From the NCBI GenBank assembly GCA_052298855.1, contig DAVZXP010000005.1, positions 109,253 through 173,252 on the forward strand: a stretch of 64,000 nt of DNA, read 5' to 3'. A program made the translations under genes and the position numbers. Each line of letters opens with the position of its first letter. Within the stretch, counting starts at the first letter, position 1. Below, piece by piece: positions 9,219 through 22,493 of the stretch. The notes under the pieces were generated by a model, which was not told the DNA's origin, searched no databases, and was given only the letters and a program-made list of their open reading frames with translations. The DNA comes from Candidatus Fimenecus sp. GTDB lineage: Bacteria; Bacillota; Clostridia; Oscillospirales; Acutalibacteraceae.

Positions 9219-9920
9219 TTATTCTCCTTTGTTTTTTAATTTATTGTTAAGCTCTCTCTGCGCCTGCGGCAGCCTCAAATAAACCGGTAAAAGTTCATTC
9301 GCACCGACAGTTTTTTCGCCCGAGAGAATTTTATCATACGCAATAAGCGCAACGCTCGACGCCTTCGGGAAACGTCTTTGCTCATCAGCCAACACAGCCT
9401 TTGAAAGCTCGCCCGACAACCTTTCAAAGCACATTTTTGCGCCGTCGCCTGCGAAAATAACAGGCTTGTCAAGTCCTTTGAGTTTTTCGAGCAATTCGTC
9501 AATCAAAATTGCCTCGTCGGGGAACAGCCTCTCCCCTTTCAAAAACGAAGCCGTATAAACCTGATTGCATCTTGCGTCCATAACCGCACACACAACCGCA
9601 TTTTCGTCCCTAAACGGATAAGCGATAGCCTCCAGCGACGACACGGCAAAGCACGGTGTAGCAAAGCTGTCTGCAAGTCCTTTTGCCGCCGCAACGCCTA
9701 TCCTCACGCCCGTAAACGAGCCGGGACCTGCGCTGACGCTGATGACATCGACATCACAAACAGCCGTATTTGTATTTTTAAGCACACTCTCAACCATAGG
9801 CATAAGAGTTTGCGAGTGAGTAAGCCCCGTGTTGAGGAAGCTCTCTGCAATAAGCTTTCCGTCCTCAATCAAAGCCGCACCTGCGCTCAAGGATGAACAT
9901 TCAAGCGATAAAATTTTCAT
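9219..9920 (-). CDS. tsaB: tRNA t6A37 threonylcarbamoyltransferase complex subunit TsaB
   Basis: YeaZ-like with GPGSFTGVRIG. Overlaps tsaE by 4 nt. Confidence 0.88.
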   Translation of the reverse strand: MKILSLECSSLSAGAALIEDGKLIAESFLNTGLTHSQTLMPMVESVLKNTNTAVCDVDVISVSAGPGSFTGVRIGVAAAKGLADSFATPCFAVSSLEAIAYPFRDENAVVCAVMDARCNQVYTASFLKGERLFPDEAILIDELLEKLKGLDKPVIFAGDGAKMCFERLSGELSKAVLADEQRRFPKASSVALIAYDKILSGEKTVGANELLPVYLRLPQAQRELNNKLKNKGE

Positions 9921-10348
9921 ATTTCAAAATCACATCCGTCAACGGTAATTATTCGGTCGTCGTCGCCCTCACCCTTTTCGATAGTAACCTTAATTGTGTT
10001 ATCGGGCAAAGCGTTTTCGATATTTTCACTCCACTCGACGCAAAGCACGCTTCCCATATCCATATAATCAAAAAAGCCTGTCGAATAGAGGTCGTCCCAG
10101 GAAGAAACACGGTACATATCAAAATGACAGAGCTCCGAGTTTTTTCCGTAAACATTTACAATCGCAAAGGTCGGACTGCTGACATCACATTCAATGCCCA
10201 TTCCCTTTGCAACACCCGTGGTAAATGCGGTTTTGCCCATGCCGAGTCCGCCGTAAAATGCAATTACGGTACCCTTTTTAACCTGCTTTCCGAATTTCTC
10301 GGCAAGCGCCACGGTCTCTTCATAATTTTTCGTTTTGAAAACCTGCAT
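9917..10348 (-). CDS. tsaE: tRNA t6A37 ATPase subunit TsaE
   Basis: Walker A GGLGMGKT, SPTFAIVN and HFDMYR. The start is set at MQVFKTKNY; the ORF extends to 10423. Confidence 0.88.
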   Translation of the reverse strand: MQVFKTKNYEETVALAEKFGKQVKKGTVIAFYGGLGMGKTAFTTGVAKGMGIECDVSSPTFAIVNVYGKNSELCHFDMYRVSSWDDLYSTGFFDYMDMGSVLCVEWSENIENALPDNTIKVTIEKGEGDDDRIITVDGCDFEI

Positions 10349-13250: not shown

Positions 13251-13612
13251 CGAACCTATGAAGACACTTTCCGCTAAAAATAGCTTTTTCTGCCCCTTTC
13301 CGCTCGGAAAACCGTGTTCTTCGGCGCTCCCCATTCCACTGTTTCCGAGTGCTCCGAAACGGTAGGTGGTCTGTTATGTGGTCAACAGCAATTTCCGCAG
13401 AATAATACACACTACACGCCTCTCGTTATCATGCGAGAGGCGATTGCTTTTTATACGGTTATTATAACTCTGAACAACCCCTGATTCAAGTCAAAATTTG
13501 CACCGCAGTAGACAAAGAAAAAGAGGATTACGAAAATGCTCGGAGAAAATAGAAAACCTGCAACAAAAAGTTGAGAAATAATGATATCGCAGTATTTTTA
13601 TGCCGAAAACAG

Positions 13613-13666
13613 TTGATGTTTGGCGAAGCATGTGGTATAATGAATTTCAGTGATACAATGCACTGA
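13613..13666 (+). promoter_or_regulatory. promoter plus inverted-repeat operator upstream of the island XRE gene
   Basis: TTGATG (13613-13618), a 17-nt spacer, then TATAAT (13636-13641). This is followed by TCAGTG-N8-CACTGA (13647-13666). Confidence 0.5.
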
Positions 13667-13693
13667 CAATAATTACTTATGAGGTGTAATACA

Positions 13694-13903
13694 ATGGCCG
13701 CAAGCTATAAAAAATTATTCAAGCTCTTAATCGACCGTGATATGAAAAAGAAAGAACTCGCCGAAAAAGCCGGCATCAGCATAGCCACCATCACCAAGAT
13801 GGGCAAAGACGGCGCAGTAGTCTCCAGTGATGTGCTTGTAAAGATATGTACTGCGCTTGAGTGCACAATGGACGATATTGTCGATATTGTTCCACAAAAA
13901 TAG
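13694..13903 (+). CDS. XRE-family HTH regulator (possible controller/C-protein of the downstream MTase operon)
   Basis: 69 aa with HTH ELAEKAGISIATITKMGKDG. GAGGTG RBS. Sits 104 nt upstream of the methyltransferase. Confidence 0.7.
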   Translation: MAASYKKLFKLLIDRDMKKKELAEKAGISIATITKMGKDGAVVSSDVLVKICTALECTMDDIVDIVPQK

Positions 13904-14006
13904 TAAAGCCCGTTTTATGGTACATACACGTCTGTATAATTATAATAGCATAACCATGCTTTATGGTGTTTGAAGCTAAATTTACTATGAGTTTGGAGAC
14001 AAATAA

Positions 14007-16115
14007 ATGGGCAACAAAAATACGAATCTTCAAGTAGCCAAAAGGGCGAAAGATGATGAATTCTATACTACATATGAAACCGTAGAGCAAGAAGTGTTGC
14101 ATTATGTAGATCAGTTTAAAAATAAAACAGTATTATGTAATTGCGACGATCCGTTTGAATCAAACTTCTGTAGATTTTTTCTAAGAAACTTTAATGTTCT
14201 AAAACTCAAAAGGTTGATTTGCACATCATATTATTCTTCAAAAGTAATTGCTACGAAGTTGAGCTTTGATAATCAAGTCAAAGATTCCTTTGATCGTAAA
14301 AATGGATATGTCCTTGATGTCACCAAGTTTTGCAATGATAATGCCGAGCTTTCAGATGAGTATATAACTAACTTCTTACTATCACATAAGGTCATTAAAA
14401 TGTTAAATGGGGATGGAGATTTCAGGAGTAGTGAATGCATTGAATATTTAAAAGAATCTGATATAGTAGTCACAAATCCACCGTTCTCACTATTCAAAGA
14501 AATTGTTTCAGAGATAATCAAATACGGAAAAAGTTTCTTGCTCATCGGCAACCAAAATGCATTGACTTATAAAGAGATATTTCCTCTGATTCAAAATAAC
14601 GAGGTATGGACAGGATATCAATTCGGAGAAATGAAATTCAGAGTACCTCAATCATCTGAACCTCGTGCCACACGCTACTGGGTAGATGAAACAGGGCAGA
14701 AATGGCGCAGCTTGGGGAATGCTATGTGGCTAACAAACTTGGATAATGATAGACGTCACGAAGAATTGCCTTTAACTAAAAAATACAGCCCACAAGATCA
14801 TCCTAAGTATGATACATACGATGCGATCCATGTAAAATCAATAACCGAGATTCCTTATGACTATGCAGGTGTTATGGGAGTTCCAATAACTATTGTAAAT
14901 AAGTATAACAGCGAACAGTTCGAGATTGTAGGTGAAGCAAATCACGGATCTGATAATGAGTTCGATTTATTTAAACCTACCATCAACGGAAAAGAAGTAT
15001 TCAAGAGAATCTTAATTCGCAACAAGAGGTTAATTAAAATGCCAACTAAAGAGTTTAGAATATTAGACCTATTCAGTGGTGCGGGTGGAATGTCTTATGG
15101 AATGGAAAAGAATGCACACTTTAAAACAGAAGTAGCACTGGATTATAATCCGCAGGCACTCGAAACATTCAAATATAATATGCCTAATGCAGAGGTTGTT
15201 ACGGGCGATATCACAGATGACAGGGTTAAAAAGCAGCTCATTGAACTGAGCAAAAAGCGAAAGGTCAATATGATAATTGGCGGTCCCCCGTGTCAAGGAT
15301 TCTCGCTAAAAGGCAAAAAGCTTGGATTAGATGATCCGAGGAACTTTCTGTTCAATGAATATCTCAACATTGTAAGTATATTAAATCCTGAGGTGTTCGT
15401 AATCGAAAATGTTAAGGCACTCCTGTCCACTTCCGCTGGATGGTTCAAAAATCAGATAATAGAGAAAGTTAGACGAATGGGATATCATGTGGAATACGGT
15501 GTGCTTACAGCTTCAGACTTTGGTGTTCCTCAGGCAAGACAAAGAGCGATTTTTATATGCTCTAAAAATAAACCCGTAACACTTCCGAAACCTACATGCC
15601 ATGAAATGGTAACAGTTAGAGATGCTATCTATGATTTGGCATACTTGAATTCTGGCGAGGGCGAATTCGAGCAAGATTATGTTACAGAGCCTACAAGTGA
15701 TTACCAAAAAGTAATGCGACAAGGTAGTAAGAAGCTGTATAACCACAAGGCATCTAACCATGCAGAAATAGCAATCAGAAAATTACAAATGATTCCGCCT
15801 GAATGCGGAAAAGAACATTTACCGCAAGAGTTGACAGGCAATCAACAGTTTAGCGGAACATGGGGAAGATTGAAATGGGATGCTGTTTCTCCCACGATAG
15901 ACACAAGATTTGATGCATCCTCAAACGGTACGAATAATCATCCATTCTTGCATAGAGCTATCACGCCTCGCGAAGCAGCGAGAATACAATCGTTTGATGA
16001 TAAGTTCGTATTTATCGGAGCAAAACTATATATTCGTCAACAAATCGGAAATGCAGTGCCTCCCCTTATGGCAAAGGCGATTGCAGATCAAATTTACGAC
16101 ATACTGAGTAAATAA
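14007..16115 (+). CDS. bifunctional DNA methyltransferase: N-terminal EcoRI-family N6-adenine MTase fused to a C-terminal C5-cytosine MTase
   Basis: N-terminal half has DDEFYT and VVTNPPFS. C-terminal half has LFSGAGG (I), GGPPCQGFS (IV), ENVKAL (VI), QARQRAIFI (VIII) and GNAVPP (X). An in-frame AAGAGG-N9-ATG (15039) sits at the domain junction. Confidence 0.88.
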   Translation: MGNKNTNLQVAKRAKDDEFYTTYETVEQEVLHYVDQFKNKTVLCNCDDPFESNFCRFFLRNFNVLKLKRLICTSYYSSKVIATKLSFDNQVKDSFDRKNGYVLDVTKFCNDNAELSDEYITNFLLSHKVIKMLNGDGDFRSSECIEYLKESDIVVTNPPFSLFKEIVSEIIKYGKSFLLIGNQNALTYKEIFPLIQNNEVWTGYQFGEMKFRVPQSSEPRATRYWVDETGQKWRSLGNAMWLTNLDNDRRHEELPLTKKYSPQDHPKYDTYDAIHVKSITEIPYDYAGVMGVPITIVNKYNSEQFEIVGEANHGSDNEFDLFKPTINGKEVFKRILIRNKRLIKMPTKEFRILDLFSGAGGMSYGMEKNAHFKTEVALDYNPQALETFKYNMPNAEVVTGDITDDRVKKQLIELSKKRKVNMIIGGPPCQGFSLKGKKLGLDDPRNFLFNEYLNIVSILNPEVFVIENVKALLSTSAGWFKNQIIEKVRRMGYHVEYGVLTASDFGVPQARQRAIFICSKNKPVTLPKPTCHEMVTVRDAIYDLAYLNSGEGEFEQDYVTEPTSDYQKVMRQGSKKLYNHKASNHAEIAIRKLQMIPPECGKEHLPQELTGNQQFSGTWGRLKWDAVSPTIDTRFDASSNGTNNHPFLHRAITPREAARIQSFDDKFVFIGAKLYIRQQIGNAVPPLMAKAIADQIYDILSK

Positions 16116-16141
16116 TTAACGGGAAGGATATAGGTGCAAAT

Positions 16142-17035
16142 ATGAATAACGAAATGGCATATTTGTTAGGAATGATAACAGGAAACGGTGCAGTTCAAAG
16201 AGGCCCTTCTGAAACCACCATTGTTATTGAGATTCCTCATAAAAAGTTAGAAACAGAGTTTAATAGAGATGTTGCTCTTTATGTAAAAGCAAGTATCACC
16301 GATATGAGGCAAGTGTTAGAGCCTGTATTAGGAACAAGCTTGGTGTTTAATCAAAATCCCAATGTTTCTTTTTTGTCGTTCAGAAAGAGAAACGAAGATT
16401 ACTTGATGAGAGAAATTATACGCTATATCGGCGGAGCTACGTCGGCGGATAATGTGAGAATCTCACCCGAAGTCTTTTCGTTTACGCTTGATGAAAGAAA
16501 ACAATTTATTCGTGGTTTTGCGGATGTAACTGGATACATTAGAAGAAGCAACTATTTCTTTGATAAAGAAGCTCACCGTGTTTATTTTGAAATTCCACAC
16601 AACTGGGGCTTGGTTGTCGATTTTTGTAACATGCTGAAAAGTGTGGATATTCCCGTGCAAAACATCGACTGGGCACATCCTAACATGAGAGATGGTAAGC
16701 TTGTAAAATACAATCAGGGAAACCATGATTTTTGGAAGAAAGAACATCAGGTTAAGGTTTGGGCAGTCGAATATGAGCCTATTGGTTTTGCAGTTATACA
16801 TAAGCAGGAGGCTTTGTCTGCTTTTGCTAATGAACATAGAGTTTGGTTGCAAGAACAAGGAAAGAATCCCGAAGATGTAACGCATAGATATTATTGGGAT
16901 TCAAATGGCAAGGTCAAGGCTAAACCTCGTCATCCTGGAGAAATGGATACATTCTTGCCTGCTGAAATCAGAGGCATACACTTTGATTCTTGGAAAGATA
17001 TTGCTAAAAAACTTGGATATAGCGAGGAGTCGTAA
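16142..17035 (+). CDS. hypothetical protein with two LAGLIDADG-like motifs (acidic residues substituted)
   Basis: YLLGMITGNG (aa 7-16) and FIRGFADVTG (aa 122-131) lie ~115 aa apart, and each is followed by beta-strand-like segments. The stop overlaps the next start (TAATG). Confidence 0.45.
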   Translation: MNNEMAYLLGMITGNGAVQRGPSETTIVIEIPHKKLETEFNRDVALYVKASITDMRQVLEPVLGTSLVFNQNPNVSFLSFRKRNEDYLMREIIRYIGGATSADNVRISPEVFSFTLDERKQFIRGFADVTGYIRRSNYFFDKEAHRVYFEIPHNWGLVVDFCNMLKSVDIPVQNIDWAHPNMRDGKLVKYNQGNHDFWKKEHQVKVWAVEYEPIGFAVIHKQEALSAFANEHRVWLQEQGKNPEDVTHRYYWDSNGKVKAKPRHPGEMDTFLPAEIRGIHFDSWKDIAKKLGYSEES

Positions 17036-17511
17036 TGTTAGAGGAAAAATTATATGAACCTATGAGAGCTTGGCTCGAACAGTATCTTCGCGATAAATAT
17101 AAAAATGCGGAGATTATAACTGTTGATTCACATAGTGAGAGATTAGATAGAGTACTAGCTAAGTATGATGTGGTAAACGAGATGGCCAATGATGTTGATA
17201 TTCAGATCGATGTGCTTGGCATTGTAAAACAACGAAATGCAGTTAAACTGTTTTTTATAGAAGCCAAAAAGACAAGGTTAACATTGCGAGATTTGGGACA
17301 ATTATGGGCTTATTGCAAATTAGTGGATCCCGAAGAAGCATTTTTGTTAACTTCATCTGATTTGGGAAGCTTGAATAAGCTGCTAAATAGCTTTGGTAGA
17401 GAAGATCTCCTTGATTTTGGCGAAGGGAAGAAAATCAAAAAGATGCGAGTGGGCAAATGGGATGTTGTGAAAAACAGCCCCGCCTATCACTCGCTTATCC
17501 CAAAGATATAA
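17035..17511 (+). CDS. PD-(D/E)xK nuclease-fold protein (restriction endonuclease-like)
   Basis: 158 aa with the pattern E8...D59 (IDVLG)...E76-A-K78 (FFIEAKK). Translationally coupled to the upstream ORF. Confidence 0.55.
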   Translation: MLEEKLYEPMRAWLEQYLRDKYKNAEIITVDSHSERLDRVLAKYDVVNEMANDVDIQIDVLGIVKQRNAVKLFFIEAKKTRLTLRDLGQLWAYCKLVDPEEAFLLTSSDLGSLNKLLNSFGREDLLDFGEGKKIKKMRVGKWDVVKNSPAYHSLIPKI

Positions 17512-17535
17512 TTGTTAATAAAAAGGAGAAAAACT

Positions 17536-18066
17536 ATGGACAATAACTATTGGAAAAACGCATATCAGAACACATGGGATGAATCATCTAAAAGAGAAAA
17601 TTTTATGGTTGACTGGATTAAAGACAACGCTGAGCTTACAGCAGAAATCATTGGGCTTGGTGCTGGTACAAGTGATTTTATAGATGGCAGTGCAAGTGAA
17701 AATGGGTATGAAAAAGGAGATGCGGATCTACATATCATTAATACAAACATATACATTGAAGTCACAGGCCCTTTAACAAAAAGTGTATCTGTAAATAGTG
17801 CTTTGTGGTTTAGACCCGACAAATTTGAAAATGCCATAAGAAACATGACAAACGGACATGACACATTCTTTGCTCATCACTGCCCATCAGGAGATTTGTG
17901 GCGAATAATACATATTGATGATAAACTTGCTCAAAGATATCAAAGACATGAATTTCGTATAGTCACACCTTGGATCAGAGGCCGTCAGGAAAGATATGTT
18001 GAAATACCAAGCAATGATCTTTGCATTAAATCGTTGGAGTATTTAAAAGATTATTTGATAGGATAA
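17536..18066 (+). CDS. hypothetical protein, possible second nuclease-like subunit
   Basis: AAGGAG RBS before ATG 17536. GDADLHII...IYIEVTGP loosely resembles a D...ExK core. Last gene of the MTase operon. Confidence 0.35.
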   Translation: MDNNYWKNAYQNTWDESSKRENFMVDWIKDNAELTAEIIGLGAGTSDFIDGSASENGYEKGDADLHIINTNIYIEVTGPLTKSVSVNSALWFRPDKFENAIRNMTNGHDTFFAHHCPSGDLWRIIHIDDKLAQRYQRHEFRIVTPWIRGRQERYVEIPSNDLCIKSLEYLKDYLIG

Positions 18067-18085
18067 ATATAAACGAGTGATTAAT

Positions 18086-18235
18086 ATGGCAATATTAGGC
18101 AAAATAGAAAGAATTGATGATTTAAGAACAATATGGCCTCATGAGGCAAGAGATTTTTTAAAATGTCTCGCACAGTAAGAAAACCTTTCTTTGTTGAGTG
18201 ACAATATAGGTATGGTAATTGATATTTTAAGGAGA
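18086..18235 (+). pseudogene. remnant of a DUF4268-type PD-(D/E)xK nuclease gene N-terminus with an in-frame stop
   Basis: MAILGKIERIDDLRTIWPHEARDFLKCLAQ-stop-ENLSLLSDNIGMVIDIL matches, from memory, the conserved N-terminus of that family. It breaks off after ~50 codons. Confidence 0.5.
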
Positions 18236-18241
18236 GAAGCA

Positions 18242-18532
18242 ATGAAAAAGTTTTTAGCTCAGTTTGAAGAATTTTGTCAAACACCCGGAATAGAATCAGG
18301 AAAGGCCCGCTCGTATGCAAATGCAATAGCATATCTGTGTGACTATTTAAACATCTCAACAATAGATGCAAAAACTATTAGCAATATAAGAAGTATAGAA
18401 AATGATGTCAACGATAAGAATAGTGCATTATATAAAGACCTATTATTGTTTTTGTCAAATCGAGGACAAAAATCATATTTAACCAAAGGGTATATAAAAG
18501 CCGCACTAAAATACTTCTTTAAGTTTGTGTGA
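18242..18532 (+). CDS. hypothetical small protein
   Basis: AAGGAGAG RBS, then ATG 18242; 96 aa with no recognised motif. May itself be a fragment. Confidence 0.35.
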   Translation: MKKFLAQFEEFCQTPGIESGKARSYANAIAYLCDYLNISTIDAKTISNIRSIENDVNDKNSALYKDLLLFLSNRGQKSYLTKGYIKAALKYFFKFV

Positions 18533-18537
18533 AATAT

Positions 18538-18930
18538 ATGGTCGAAGTAGTAGCTGCACTGATCTGGAACAAAGATGGATTCATGATCTGCCAACGACCT
18601 GCGCACAAAGCGAGAGGACTCTTATGGGAGTTTGTTGGCGGTAAAGTCGAGCCCGGTGAGACGAAAGAACAGGCGCTCATCCGTGAGTGTCAGGAAGAAC
18701 TTGCAGTAACGCTGTCTGTTGGAGATGTTTTTATGGATGTAGTCCACGAATATCCTGACTTGACGGTACATCTGACACTGTTCAATGCTACTATTACCAA
18801 TGGTGTTCTACAGAAGTTGGAGCACAACAGCATCAAATGGATTGCGCCATGCGAAATCCCAAACTACAAATTCTGTCCGGCGGATGTAGAGATATTGAAA
18901 AAGATAACAGAGGTTTTTCGTGATGATTAA
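18538..18930 (+). CDS. NUDIX hydrolase, MutT/NudG-like (d)NTP pyrophosphohydrolase
   Basis: Nudix box GGKVEPGETKEQALIRECQEELAV; ~130 aa. Confidence 0.85.
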   Translation: MVEVVAALIWNKDGFMICQRPAHKARGLLWEFVGGKVEPGETKEQALIRECQEELAVTLSVGDVFMDVVHEYPDLTVHLTLFNATITNGVLQKLEHNSIKWIAPCEIPNYKFCPADVEILKKITEVFRDD

Positions 18931-19333
18931 GAATTTGGTGCATGATCCGATATTTCTTGCTGGAAAGTCGGAGACTGCGACAAAAGAAGATTTGCAGATC
19001 GCACAGGATCTGATTGATACGTTGATCACGCACAGAGACAGCTGCGTTGGTATGGCGGCAAATATGATCGGTGTCAAGAAACGTATCATCGCTTTTCTTG
19101 ATGAAAGTGGACGAACGCCTACATATACAGTGATGCTAAATCCGGAGGTTATTAAAAAAGACGGAGCTTATAACACTGAGGAGGGATGCCTTTCACAACT
19201 TTATGGTCATCGTAAATGCAAGTGCTATCAGACTATCAAAGTACAGTGGAAACGGCTGAATTTCAAACTCGTATCAAAACATTTATCGTCTGGTCCGCAC
19301 AAATTATCCAGCACTAAATTAATCATTGAATGA
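18920..19333 (+). pseudogene. def: peptide deformylase, decayed (frameshift, and HExxH destroyed)
   Basis: Motif 1 GMAANMIG and motif 2 EGCLS are present. After about 19250 the conserved C-terminus continues in another frame as ETAEFQTRIKTFIVWSAQIIQH-stop-INH-stop, so the Glu of HEIDH is a TAA codon. Confidence 0.6.
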
Positions 19334-19373: not shown

Positions 19374-20363
19374 ATGATAGAGTATACAGAAAACGAAAAA
19401 CAGTTAAATGGATATGATTTTATAGATTTGTTTTGTGGCATAGGTGGATTTCATTTAGCCTTGTCATCTTTGGGTGCTAACTGCGTATTTGCATCAGATA
19501 TTGATAAAGAAGCATGTAAGGTATATGAAACAAATTTTGGATTAAAGCCACATGGTGATATTACAAAAATAGCAGAAGAAAAAATACCCAAGCACGATAT
19601 TCTTTGTGCTGGTTTCCCTTGCCAACCTTTTAGTATTTCGGGAAATCAGCAAGGATTTGATGATGAGCAAGGGAGAGGGAAGTTGTTTTTCGACATCGTA
19701 AGAATTGCCAAATATCACAAACCTAAAGTGTTGATATTAGAAAATGTGAAGAATTTCGAAAAACACGATGGTGGAAAAACTATTAAAAGGGTAGAAAAAG
19801 AACTTAATGATATAGGATATACATTTTTTTCTGAAGTACTATGTGCATCAGATTTTGATGTGCCTCAACAGCGCAAAAGAATATATATAGTAGCATTTCG
19901 AAATGACTTGAATATTGATACATTTGAGTTCCCACAGGGGCTCAACAAATTTAAAGTATTGAAGGATGTTTTGATAACTAAAGCAGAAAACAAAATCAAA
20001 GGTAATTACTATATCGATAGAGAATACACAATTAAAAGTAACCCAAAACGAAAAGAGAATAAATTGATTAGAATTGGCGAGATAGGTCTGGGTCGCCAGG
20101 GAGAAAGAATTTATTCAATTAACGGTCAAGCCACAACGTTATCTTCACAAGGTGGAGGCTTGGGCGGAAAAACAGGACTGTATTTGATTCGAAAAAAAGT
20201 GCGCAAGCTATTTCCACGTGAATGTGCACGGGTAATGGGTTTTCCGGATAGTTTTAAATTGTCACATAGTCAGGAACAAAACTATAAGCAATTTGGAAAC
20301 AGTGTAGTTGTTGATGTTATTCAAGCTATAGTAAAAGAAGTTATTAAAAAAATCGAGGGATAA
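19374..20363 (+). CDS. DNA (cytosine-5)-methyltransferase
   Basis: Motifs LFCGIGG (I), GFPCQPFS (IV), ENVKNF (VI), QQRKRIYIV (VIII) and FGNSVVV (X). Confidence 0.93.
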   Translation: MIEYTENEKQLNGYDFIDLFCGIGGFHLALSSLGANCVFASDIDKEACKVYETNFGLKPHGDITKIAEEKIPKHDILCAGFPCQPFSISGNQQGFDDEQGRGKLFFDIVRIAKYHKPKVLILENVKNFEKHDGGKTIKRVEKELNDIGYTFFSEVLCASDFDVPQQRKRIYIVAFRNDLNIDTFEFPQGLNKFKVLKDVLITKAENKIKGNYYIDREYTIKSNPKRKENKLIRIGEIGLGRQGERIYSINGQATTLSSQGGGLGGKTGLYLIRKKVRKLFPRECARVMGFPDSFKLSHSQEQNYKQFGNSVVVDVIQAIVKEVIKKIEG

Positions 20364-20366
20364 ATT

Positions 20367-22493
20367 ATGGGAAGTAAAGCTTCGTTTAAATTAGCATATT
20401 CAGCGTTGAAAATGTTTGGAAAGCAACTTTATTCCAATGTCGGTGCCGCTATATCTGAGTTGGTTGCTAACGGGTTTGATGCCGGTGCTGATGATGTCTA
20501 TGTTGTAATAGATGCAAGAAACAAATCTGCTGCTACGGTAGAAATTTTAGACAATGGGTCAGGAATGTCTCCAGAACATATTGAAGAGAATTATGTAAAA
20601 ATTGGATATAACAAAAGAGAACATGAAAAAAATGCTGACACTGCTATGGGTCGAAAAGGAATAGGAAAATTGGCAGCTCTTTATATGTCAAATAAGTTTA
20701 TATTAGTTTCTAAGACGAAAAAAGACAAATGTTCTTCATGGGAATTGGATGTTACGAAAATCAAAAATGACGATGATGCGCCTGATTTGGTGCAAATAAC
20801 GGATGTAAATTTACAGCAATCACAATGCTTTGATATTTGGAATTCTCAAAAAACAGGGACTTTTATATATCTTGAAAATGTGGATTTAAGAGGGTTCGGT
20901 CAAAGAGGATTAGAGTCGATTCGCAAGAGATTATCAAACTATTTCTTGTTGGACGAACTTCGAAAAAATATTTATATTATGGTAATCCTTGATGATGAGA
21001 CTCCACGCGAATTCGTTAAAGTTGAGAAACAAATAGCCTTTAAGAATATGGTATGTATTTATGCATCTGATACAAGTCGTTTTGAAGATCTTAAAAGTAA
21101 TATATTTTCGATAGAGTATACCAACAAACTTAAACAAATTAAAGAATACGAGGAAACAACTACAATAAAAGAACTCGAATCAGCTAAAGATAATTTTAAT
21201 ATTTCTGGTGAGATTACCGTTGACGGTATAACAAAAAAGTACGTTTTATCGGGTTGGGTTGGAGTCCATTGCACAATTGATGAGGATAAAGCCAAAAAGA
21301 ATGACGATGCATATTTTAAAAGTACTTTTTATAATCCTAATCAGTTAAGGTTATACGTAAGAAACAAATTGGCAGTTGCTAATATGAGAGAATATCTTGG
21401 TATTAAGCAGGCCTTCGCAAACTATATCGAAGGTGAGGTTTCATTTGATATTCTTGATGACAATGATATGCCCGACATTGCAACGGCGGGACGGCAAGAC
21501 TACGACACTGCGGATCCGCGCTTTTTAAAATTATGTGAATTACTAAAAGTTATAGGCGATAGCCTTGTGAGGAGTAGACAAGCCTTAGCGGATAAACTAA
21601 AAGATGAAAGAAATGCGAGTGATATGAAAATCTCTACCGCCGCAAAGAAAAACTTTGCGGTTGGTTTTGCTCAGGCAGTGCATAGATTACCTATCACACA
21701 AGCAGACAAAAGCGAATTAATTAACACAACAGTAAATCAGTTAGAGGGAGATGTAGAAGCCAAGGGACAATATACTGTGTTTATTTCTCATTCCAGTCAA
21801 GATAAATTTCTATCGGATTTCTTTTATCACTATTTGGTAAAAAGAGGCTTCAATGGTGATATGAAAGACTTGGATAATTGTGAAGTTTTTTATTCAAGTG
21901 CCGGAATGGATAAAGCTTCTATGGAGAGTTTGGCGAGCACAATTAGAGATTTCTTAATTGCTAAAGATAACGATGTGCTTATGGTTACTTCCTCAGGGTA
22001 TAAAGACAGTGAGTTTTGTATGTTTGAGGGTGGTGCAGTATGGGCAACTAAAGCTGATAAACATAGATTGATTGCCATCGATTATGATACTATACCAAGT
22101 TTTTTGAAGAATGGTAGTCCAGAGATATGTTTTAGTGATACAGATAAAAACAGTTACCAGTTTAACGAGCAATTGTATGAAGATATATTAGCTGTGTTGA
22201 CACGTATAATGATTCATCTTAATCAAAATAGGATTGTAAGAGGAGAAAAGGAAATATCTATTCCTGAGAGACCAAACTTTCCAGACAAAGTTGAGCTCAA
22301 AAAGACAGGAAAGACTATTAAAGATTATATGGATCCTCTGATATTAGAATACTGGGATACCTATGTGTTGGATCAGGTTGATGATTACATAAATTACCGT
22401 GCAGGAAAAAAACTTTTGCAGAAAAAGCTTGAAGAAACAGAAAGGGAGTTTTGGGAAGAGTATAAATCCAAAAAGTTAGCTTTGGCTGAATAA
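20367..22493 (+). CDS. GHKL (HATPase_c_3, MORC/MutL-like) ATPase fused to a C-terminal TIR-like domain
   Basis: Bergerat-fold boxes ELVANGFDAGA, DNGSGM and GRKGIGKLA at the N-terminus. C-terminal region (~aa 470-620) reads VFISHSSQDK...VFYSS...VLMVTSS...SEFCMFEGG. The ATG lies 3 nt after the MTase stop. Confidence 0.7.
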   Translation: MGSKASFKLAYSALKMFGKQLYSNVGAAISELVANGFDAGADDVYVVIDARNKSAATVEILDNGSGMSPEHIEENYVKIGYNKREHEKNADTAMGRKGIGKLAALYMSNKFILVSKTKKDKCSSWELDVTKIKNDDDAPDLVQITDVNLQQSQCFDIWNSQKTGTFIYLENVDLRGFGQRGLESIRKRLSNYFLLDELRKNIYIMVILDDETPREFVKVEKQIAFKNMVCIYASDTSRFEDLKSNIFSIEYTNKLKQIKEYEETTTIKELESAKDNFNISGEITVDGITKKYVLSGWVGVHCTIDEDKAKKNDDAYFKSTFYNPNQLRLYVRNKLAVANMREYLGIKQAFANYIEGEVSFDILDDNDMPDIATAGRQDYDTADPRFLKLCELLKVIGDSLVRSRQALADKLKDERNASDMKISTAAKKNFAVGFAQAVHRLPITQADKSELINTTVNQLEGDVEAKGQYTVFISHSSQDKFLSDFFYHYLVKRGFNGDMKDLDNCEVFYSSAGMDKASMESLASTIRDFLIAKDNDVLMVTSSGYKDSEFCMFEGGAVWATKADKHRLIAIDYDTIPSFLKNGSPEICFSDTDKNSYQFNEQLYEDILAVLTRIMIHLNQNRIVRGEKEISIPERPNFPDKVELKKTGKTIKDYMDPLILEYWDTYVLDQVDDYINYRAGKKLLQKKLEETEREFWEEYKSKKLALAE

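Follow-up and report, generated by a model that had tools for sequence, protein, structure and literature searches.

A candidate two-subunit restriction endonuclease pairing a predicted, catalytically inactive LAGLIDADG scaffold with a PD-(D/E)xK-type partner

The 64,000-nucleotide (nt) stretch of the Candidatus Fimenecus sp. contig DAVZXP010000005.1 analysed here (the window) carries three small open reading frames, ORF1, ORF2 and ORF3, behind a hybrid DNA methylase. We propose, with a probability of roughly 0.6, that these genes form a Type II restriction–modification (R–M) operon comprising a controller protein, a hybrid N6-methyladenine/5-methylcytosine (m6A/m5C) methylase and a two-subunit endonuclease encoded by ORF1 and ORF2, with ORF3 as an optional gene outside the core. 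The two-subunit core most likely represents a structurally new form of Type II restriction enzyme. The original prediction, made from the letters of the window, had joined all three ORFs into one split enzyme of about 630 amino acids (aa). Its reading of the letters was accurate: the coordinates of the three ORFs, the TAATG overlap, the AAGGAG ahead of ORF3, the combined length (631 aa), the 115-aa spacing of the two ORF1 motifs, the D...ExK of ORF2 and the D...EVT of ORF3 were all as described when re-read. The three-part enzyme itself was not supported, as set out below.

No significant match came from searches of ORF1–3 against Pfam, NCBIfam, PADLOC, PHROGs and PDB sequences, whether the query was a single sequence or a profile. 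Nevertheless, the three proteins have many relatives among clustered metagenome and genome proteins (1206 for ORF1, 2689 for ORF2 and 137 for ORF3), and because these are so numerous and the motif residues vary little or not at all, the features described here lie far beyond chance.

A predicted LAGLIDADG scaffold without its catalytic acids

An AlphaFold2 (AF2) model of ORF1, built on an alignment (A1) of 34 homologues with identities between 79% and 23%, reached a predicted local distance difference test score (pLDDT) of 89.8 and a predicted template-modelling score (pTM) of 0.90. All of the 50 best PDB matches listed by Foldseek for this model were LAGLIDADG homing endonucleases, a maturase or WhiA, and other folds were absent among them; the matches, at E values from 5e-7 to 3e-4, included I-AniI (5e-7), PI-PfuI, PI-SceI, the bI3 maturase, I-DmoI, I-OnuI and WhiA (8e-5). 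At the metal-binding position, motif 1 carries R, N, K, S or G and motif 2 carries T, A, S, G, C, I or N, and in neither motif is the residue acidic in any of the 34 homologues. In the same alignment, the glycines of helix packing (G10, G16 and G125) never vary and D128 is about 90% conserved. By model and alignment, then, ORF1 is predicted to be a double LAGLIDADG fold from which both catalytic acids have been lost. The original prediction had suggested exactly this, with structure prediction and Foldseek as the way to check it, and the modelled topology, the Foldseek matches and the homologue alignment bear it out. The relationship is one of structure: at E ≤ 0.1, ORF1 matched no LAGLIDADG model of Pfam and no NCBIfam or PHROG model, and a profile search of the PDB returned nothing.

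Conservation in ORF1 peaks in the beta-saddle of its second domain. Down to 23% identity, W155, H179 and P180 never vary, and the conservation of N181, E201 and H202 stays at 90% or above. No ORF1 positions were found that track the three methylase combinations described below, and the alignment therefore offers no evidence of specificity diversification.

The C-terminal tail of about 60 aa contains short helices only, together with a NUMOD1-like motif. Its last ~27 residues (268–294, at 16943–17023) resemble a DNA-binding motif of the NUMOD1/I-TevI type, and a 640-aa protein (P0385) matching NUMOD1 and I-TevI DNA-binding models contains 11 copies of the same tail unit. More distant ORF1 homologues have conserved Cys and His residues in the tail, a possible zinc site that has been lost in the subfamily of the window. 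ORF1-type LAGLIDADG domains are also found at the C terminus of proteins of 990–1300 aa (P0430, P0436, P0439, P0442 and P0458), after about 700 aa without a Pfam match; a long gene with such a domain (L148, 1211–4186) adjoins an N6_N4 methylase and two unknown genes.

ORF2 carries a nuclease signature and accompanies ORF1

The conserved signature of ORF2 is D...ExK...QxxxY. Across 27 ORF2-type sequences, down to 24% identity (A5), E3, D59, Y93 and P99 are invariant, whereas E76, K78, G88 and Q89 are at least 90% conserved; G88, Q89 and Y93 make up a RecB-like QxxxY motif. This pattern sustains the earlier identification of a D...ExK nuclease core, and from the motif we infer a PD-(D/E)xK fold. 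When the members were scanned singly, 9 of the 27 gave weak, sub-threshold matches to the YhcG_C PDDEXK family, and others gave equally sub-threshold, weak Pfam matches to HSDR_N, HSDR_N_2, VRR_NUC and PDDEXK_4. Comparisons of ORF2 with ORF3 and with the NOV_C domain by hhalign were not significant. Matches of profile A5 to designer pentatricopeptide proteins in the PDB were rejected as an artefact, being summed weak matches to a 'KPDVVTY' repeat.

The linkage of ORF2 to ORF1 was followed in a genome scan that used a profile of ORF1 alignment A4 and one genome per species. It returned 217 loci, of which the best 80 (L017–L096) were examined; these span Lachnospiraceae, Bacteroides, Treponema socranskii, Campylobacter, Desulfovibrionaceae, Synergistaceae, Mycoplasmatota and others. 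Carriers in culture include Treponema socranskii ATCC 35536, Anaerotignum neopropionicum DSM 3847, Butyrivibrio sp. X503 and Merdimmobilis hominis An559. ORF2 lies directly after ORF1 in 80 of 80 loci and in all other contexts examined, the pairing is kept where ORF1 identity has fallen to 31% (L149), and about 20 distant proteins of ~545 aa are fusions of the two. ORF2 is the obligate partner of ORF1. In the window, the ATG of ORF2 shares one base with the TAA of ORF1 (TAATG) and is preceded, 5 nt upstream, by GAGGAG, an arrangement through which translation of ORF2 is predicted to be coupled to that of ORF1. One relative (L015) has, after a fused ORF1–ORF2, a free-standing ORF2 paralogue (9635–10141) in which ExK has become N-x-E; this second copy may be an inactive dimerisation partner.

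The ORF1/ORF2 family is widespread, moves horizontally and comprises more than 1000 protein clusters in Bacillota, Bacteroidota, Spirochaetota, Campylobacterota and others. A 148-kb human gut metagenome contig (L097) encodes ORF1 and ORF2 proteins 100% identical to those of the window and an ORF3 protein 99% identical. The closest genome relative (L017), a Clostridia metagenome-assembled genome from roe deer rectum, has an ORF1 protein of 96% identity and carries a gene of the p115 family (described below) and no ORF3.

Paired methylases point to a restriction–modification setting

In every locus not cut by a contig end, two methylases lie within 4 kb of the ORF1/ORF2 pair. They occur in three combinations: a fused EcoRI-like m6A and cytosine-C5 (C5) methylase, as in the window (22 unique ORF1 sequences); a separate C5 methylase with a gamma-class N6 methylase (17); and a gamma-class N6 methylase with a beta-class N4/N6 methylase (43). 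The C5 methylases of the first two combinations are about 70% identical, and the gamma-class N6 methylases of the last two about 45%. Co-conservation with the hybrid methylase had been put forward as a check on the original prediction; paired methylases are indeed always present, but in these three combinations, so that the association is not with the hybrid specifically. The upstream methylase of the window is truly hybrid, as had been claimed, with an EcoRI_methylase domain (PF13651) followed by a C5 DNA_methylase domain (PF00145). Residues 7–340 form the EcoRI-like N6-adenine part and residues 350–697 the cytosine-C5 part, the latter with its motifs in canonical order (PF00145 positions 1–323 matched in that order).

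The methylase identities across combinations, the lack of methylase-tracking ORF1 residues and the conserved saddle jointly suggest that these systems have one shared or very similar target, an asymmetric site offering an A in one strand and a C in the opposite one. The two methylase activities would then act one per strand. Controller-type helix-turn-helix (HTH) genes are common among ORF1/ORF2 loci. The 74-aa HTH protein of the window, which has homologues in the same position in L009, L017, L048–L063 and others, is probably the controller (C) protein of the system. A conserved protein of ~120 aa without a family match is encoded upstream of the methylases in many loci (L001, 5060–5425; L004, 3966–4322; L006, 4059–4424), sometimes in the place of the HTH controller and sometimes after ORF2.

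If the loci are R–M systems, ORF1 and ORF2 are the only universal endonuclease candidates. A minimal example is the 6.5-kb plasmid p9 of Lactiplantibacillus plantarum P9 (NZ_CP060181.1), whose defence genes are limited to one for a 700-aa hybrid methylase and the homologues of ORF1 (48%) and ORF2; its remaining annotated genes encode replication functions, a toxin–antitoxin pair and a DUF536 protein. Being carried by a cultured Lactiplantibacillus, this plasmid is a ready three-gene test system.

ORF3 is an optional gene with a predicted nuclease fold

The AF2 model of ORF3 (pLDDT 89.5) matched, in the PDB, the resolvases Hje/Hjc, fusellovirus D212, RecU/PrfA and the SPARDA nuclease domain, and more weakly HincII; the best of these matches had E values of 6e-4 to 3e-3 and template-modelling (TM) scores of 0.45–0.63. 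Many uncharacterised phage proteins were matched in BFVD, with TM up to 0.77. ORF3 is accordingly modelled as a PD-(D/E)xK fold, in keeping with the earlier suggestion that its D...EVT pattern is nuclease-like. Invariant residues in alignment A3 include E21, D64, E75, T77 and K96, the last within an invariant RPDK96 motif. T77 occupies the position of the canonical lysine, and K96 might substitute for this missing catalytic residue. An hhalign comparison of ORF3 with NOV_C was not significant and aligned only a 17-residue D...E-V-(K/T) stretch, and a phage collection search with ORF3 gave no match. We note that the ORF3 family is small, conserved, methylase-associated and of nuclease fold, and has no Pfam model.

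None of the 80 genome loci, L017 among them, carries ORF3, nor does plasmid p9. The ORF1/ORF2 loci that do carry it (the window, L009, L013/14, L097–L100, L108, L113, L126, L141 and L142) have only the EcoRI-like hybrid methylase, wherever a methylase is on the contig. The gene is also found apart from ORF1 and ORF2. In L101–L103, an ORF3 homologue (66%) neighbours an EcoRI-like methylase that stands alone and has 76% identity to the N-terminal domain of the window's hybrid, with no C5 methylase, ORF1 or ORF2; in L010 and L114, a homologue stands beside a 580-aa gamma-class methylase. ORF3-family genes lie near Type III genes or unrelated methylases in L104, L106, L110, L111, L119 and L121 (for example L119, 5992–6525), and in L106, L119 and L121 the relative is inside or adjoins a Type III mod/res pair (N6_N4_Mtase Mod, ResIII and RE_endonuc Res). 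Phage-like freshwater contigs carry relatives beside an FkbM-type methyltransferase. We take ORF3 to be an optional companion of the EcoRI-like m6A methylase module and not a core subunit.

Other small genes are optional too. The Ndom151/p115 family (111–160 aa), which is absent from the window, is encoded before ORF1 or after ORF2 in L001 (9416–9871), L004 (6986–8008), L017 (7657–7992) and 41 other loci, and a NOV_C nuclease domain (PF13020) is joined to some of its members. Loci without any third small gene include L044, L057, L072 and L075. A Vsr-like repair role for the third gene was considered and rejected, as the association also holds with methylase pairs lacking m5C. The ORF1/ORF2 family is unusually modular, with interchangeable methylase pairs and with ORF3, Ndom/p115 and NOV_C fusions all optional.

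Proposed mechanism and alternative explanations

In the mechanism that we favour, DNA recognition would fall to ORF1 and cleavage to ORF2. The domesticated, single-chain ORF1 scaffold would bind an asymmetric site through its two beta-sheet saddles. ORF2, co-translated through TAATG, would dock on ORF1 and supply Mg-dependent PD-(D/E)xK strand cleavage, possibly as a dimer. One domain of the hybrid methylase would mark adenine on one strand of the same site and the other domain cytosine on the opposite strand; the host would be protected because both bases are methylated. The restriction phenotype is part of this proposal, in which ORF3 may either help, by completing or processing breaks, or add a small restriction activity of its own.

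Several observations weigh against this mechanism. The conserved H179-P-N181 and E201-H202 of ORF1 could form a different active site, and the conserved second-domain beta-saddle fits a constant protein partner equally well as it fits DNA reading. A single ORF2 active site per complex does not alone explain double-strand cleavage, and ORF2 profile searches against the PDB gave no real match. In WhiA, moreover, the closest domesticated analogue, DNA binding may not depend mainly on the LAGLIDADG domain (PMC3384342), and the source names of all ORF1–3 relatives are 'hypothetical protein'.

Two alternatives assign ORF3 a larger part. It could be the third obligate subunit of one endonuclease in which ORF2 cleaves one strand and ORF3 the other. 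Its gene starts 24 nt past the ORF2 stop with its own ribosome-binding site (AAGGAG, 17523–17528), a consensus scan from 13443 to 18700 found no terminator-like site on the + strand, and one metatranscriptome contig crosses the ORF2/ORF3 junction. The metatranscriptome matches to the locus are few and short, and their apparent joints look chimeric, which makes them too thin for an operon claim. The nuclease fold modelled for ORF3 would suit such a role, the order ORF1–ORF2–ORF3 recurs in the divergent loci L009, L013, L108, L113, L126, L141 and L142 (ORF3 identity 33–69%), and some relatives have another nuclease-like third gene (the NOV_C fusion, or the ORF2 paralogue in L015). We nonetheless regard an obligate third subunit as unlikely: the gene is missing even where ORF1 is 96% identical and from a minimal plasmid, a third small gene is lacking from many loci, and ORF3 relatives live without ORF1 and ORF2 beside other methylases, in Type III operons and on phage-like contigs. 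In the second alternative, two systems would be stacked on one methylase, with ORF3 a self-sufficient restriction enzyme served by the EcoRI-like m6A activity and ORF1–ORF2 an independent endonuclease that the same hybrid methylation blocks. The methylase–ORF3 pairs of L101–L103, L010 and L114 fit this idea, as does the restriction of ORF3, within ORF1/ORF2 loci, to the EcoRI-like hybrid. However, more than 20 ORF3 residues are invariant across EcoRI-like, gamma-class, Type III Mod and FkbM-type contexts, which would be unusual for enzymes of differing specificity; the nearest folds are structure-specific resolvases (Hje/Hjc and RecU) and not typical Type IIP enzymes, and T77 replaces the canonical lysine. 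Stacked systems therefore also strike us as improbable.

The remaining alternatives question the division of labour between ORF1 and ORF2. ORF1 could itself be the nuclease, through a new active site in its second domain (for example H179, N181, E201 and H202), with ORF2 regulatory or structural. That the invariant and near-invariant residues fall in the most conserved region of ORF1 speaks for this, but they sit on the beta3'–beta4' hairpin, where LAGLIDADG proteins contact DNA, so their conservation may reflect binding; a complete and strongly conserved D...ExK...QxxxY in ORF2 would also be unexpected in a mere scaffold, and we consider a nuclease role for ORF1 very improbable. Finally, ORF1 and ORF2 might be no restriction enzyme at all and instead a methylase-associated accessory, such as a WhiA-like regulator with a repair or selfish nuclease. 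WhiA shows that inactive LAGLIDADG scaffolds can turn into regulators, and it is among the Foldseek matches. Yet every locus would then lack a restriction gene despite its two methylases and, often, a controller protein, and plasmid p9 would be left with a methylase and no restriction enzyme among its defence genes; the association with methylase pairs that do not make m5C argues against a deamination-repair role. An accessory function is, in our judgement, the remotest of the explanations considered. The reading that we retain is the R–M operon with a two-subunit ORF1–ORF2 endonuclease.

Locus layout and neighbouring genes

The features of the locus are collected in Table 1. ORF2 and ORF3 are in the same frame, with one TAA and eight codons between them (17509–17538), and the reading frame of ORF3 extends back to a TTG at 17512.

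Table 1. Features of the candidate R–M locus, in window coordinates
Feature	Position	Strand	Basis
Strong terminator-like hairpin ending the upstream unit	13417-13442		Consensus scan only
Promoter-like site of the HTH gene, TTGATG-17-TATAAT, extended TG	13613..13641	+	Consensus scan only
74-aa Cro/C1-type HTH protein	13679..13903	+	Pfam HTH_26 1.6e-17
702-aa hybrid DNA methylase	14007..16115	+	PF13651 1.6e-120, PF00145 5.6e-70, TIGR00675, PADLOC MTase_II
ORF1, 297 aa, predicted degenerate double-LAGLIDADG-fold protein	16142..17035	+	AF2, Foldseek, alignment A1
ORF1 motif 1, YLLGMITGNG, residues 7-16, metal-binding position N15	16160..16189	+	
ORF1 motif 2, FIRGFADVTG, residues 122-131, metal-binding position T130	16505..16534	+	
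ORF2, 158 aa, candidate PD-(D/E)xK-type nuclease subunit	17035..17511	+	Alignments A2 and A5, weak Pfam matches, fusions
ORF2 residues D59 (IDVLG); E76-A-K78 (FIEAKK); Q89...Y93	17209-17211 (D59); 17260-17268 (E76-A-K78)		
ORF3, 176 aa, predicted accessory PD-(D/E)xK-fold protein, Hjc/RecU/D212-like	17536..18066	+	AF2, Foldseek PDB and BFVD, alignment A3
ORF3 residues E21; D64; E75-V-T77; R93-P-D-K96	17725-17727 (D64); 17758-17766 (E75-V-T77)		

Downstream, a NUDIX gene (18529–18930) overlaps a peptide-deformylase-like ORF (18920–19333) that covers only positions 19–125 of the 156 in the profile; with a C terminus of seemingly different origin, this ORF could be a copy that has been truncated or frameshifted. 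Another defence pair is encoded 1.3 kb beyond ORF3 (19374–22493) and consists of a 329-aa C5 methylase and, after a 3-nt gap, a 708-aa protein. The N terminus of the latter is a GHKL ATPase (HATPase_c_3), residues 8–405 partially match a BbrUII/HgiDII restriction-enzyme model, and the C terminus is TIR-like (PADLOC spbK 2.7e-10, Pfam TIR_2 0.004), which would place a TIR domain in the C-terminal part of a restriction-enzyme-family protein.

Significance and comparison with known systems

Known restriction enzymes use the catalytic folds PD-(D/E)xK, HNH, GIY-YIG, PLD and half-pipe. A 2012 review of the relatives of homing endonucleases lists restriction enzymes for non-LAGLIDADG folds only (PMC3384342). 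The original prediction knew of no characterised restriction enzyme with a LAGLIDADG fold, and full-text literature searches, which were non-exhaustive and did not cover REBASE, likewise gave no report of a LAGLIDADG-fold protein in an R–M system. We put at even odds that ORF1–ORF2 is the first restriction-endonuclease family to recognise DNA through a domesticated, inactive LAGLIDADG scaffold coupled or fused to a PD-(D/E)xK cutter. Should this be true, such a reuse in a common R–M family of gut bacteria would close a gap, LAGLIDADG being the one major homing-endonuclease fold without a reported restriction relative, and would link homing endonucleases directly to restriction enzymes in evolution. 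The LAGLIDADG fold would then have been domesticated twice independently, in WhiA and here. Engineered 'meganuclease scaffold plus nuclease domain' chimeras would gain a counterpart in nature, and the family would offer a compact natural module for asymmetric-site recognition on a scaffold that engineers can already retarget.

Among known proteins, ORF3 is closest in fold to Hjc/Hje, RecU and D212, with an E...D...E-x core at the expected positions. It differs from them in having T77 for lysine with the RPDK96 motif nearby, and in its context, which is that of methylases and R–M operons, not of recombination genes.

For the paired methylase activities, the Alw26I/Esp3I/Eco31I group offers a comparison. 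Bitinaite et al. are said to have found that the fusion of this type methylates both strands, and the endonuclease is reportedly a single-chain HNH enzyme (Jakubauskas 2007). In this group, which places m6A and m5C on an asymmetric site, adenine and C5 methylases act together, at times within one fusion protein, as in the fused methylase of the window, and the C5 methylases are circularly permuted (PMC5944983). Membership of the window's system was rejected, because its C5 domain is in canonical order and ORF1–3 have no HNH match.

The modular and heteromeric Type IIS and IIT enzymes FokI, BtsI, BsrDI and BbvCI (PMC2909958 and PMC3017599), like the proposed ORF1–ORF2 enzyme, separate recognition from cleavage and have adjacent, coupled subunit genes. 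The paired methylases at ORF1/ORF2 loci point to an asymmetric site, as in these enzymes, whereas ORF1–3 have no sequence similarity to any restriction enzyme in the PDB or NCBIfam. We know of no Type IIS or IIT enzyme that recognises DNA through a LAGLIDADG fold.

WhiA (DUF199) is a domesticated, inactive LAGLIDADG scaffold with a C-terminal HTH, unable to cut DNA (PMC3384342). Like ORF1 as modelled here, it combines an inactive double-LAGLIDADG scaffold with a C-terminal extension (Foldseek 8dy9_I and 8dy7_I, E about 1e-4), although ORF1 has no sequence match to the WhiA families of Pfam and NCBIfam. As a transcription factor, WhiA acts together with RNA polymerase and WhiB, and it is universal in Gram-positives; ORF1, by contrast, is coupled to a candidate nuclease and methylases and has a patchy, horizontally spread distribution.

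With the LAGLIDADG homing endonucleases themselves (I-AniI, I-DmoI, I-OnuI and the PI-SceI endonuclease domain), ORF1 shares the conserved motif glycines. It differs in that both metal-binding acids are gone, as they are in all of its aligned homologues, and in that it matches no Pfam LAGLIDADG model. Homing endonucleases occupy intron, intein or free-standing homing loci, whereas ORF1 resides in a methylase operon and is always paired with, or fused to, a PD-(D/E)xK-type protein.

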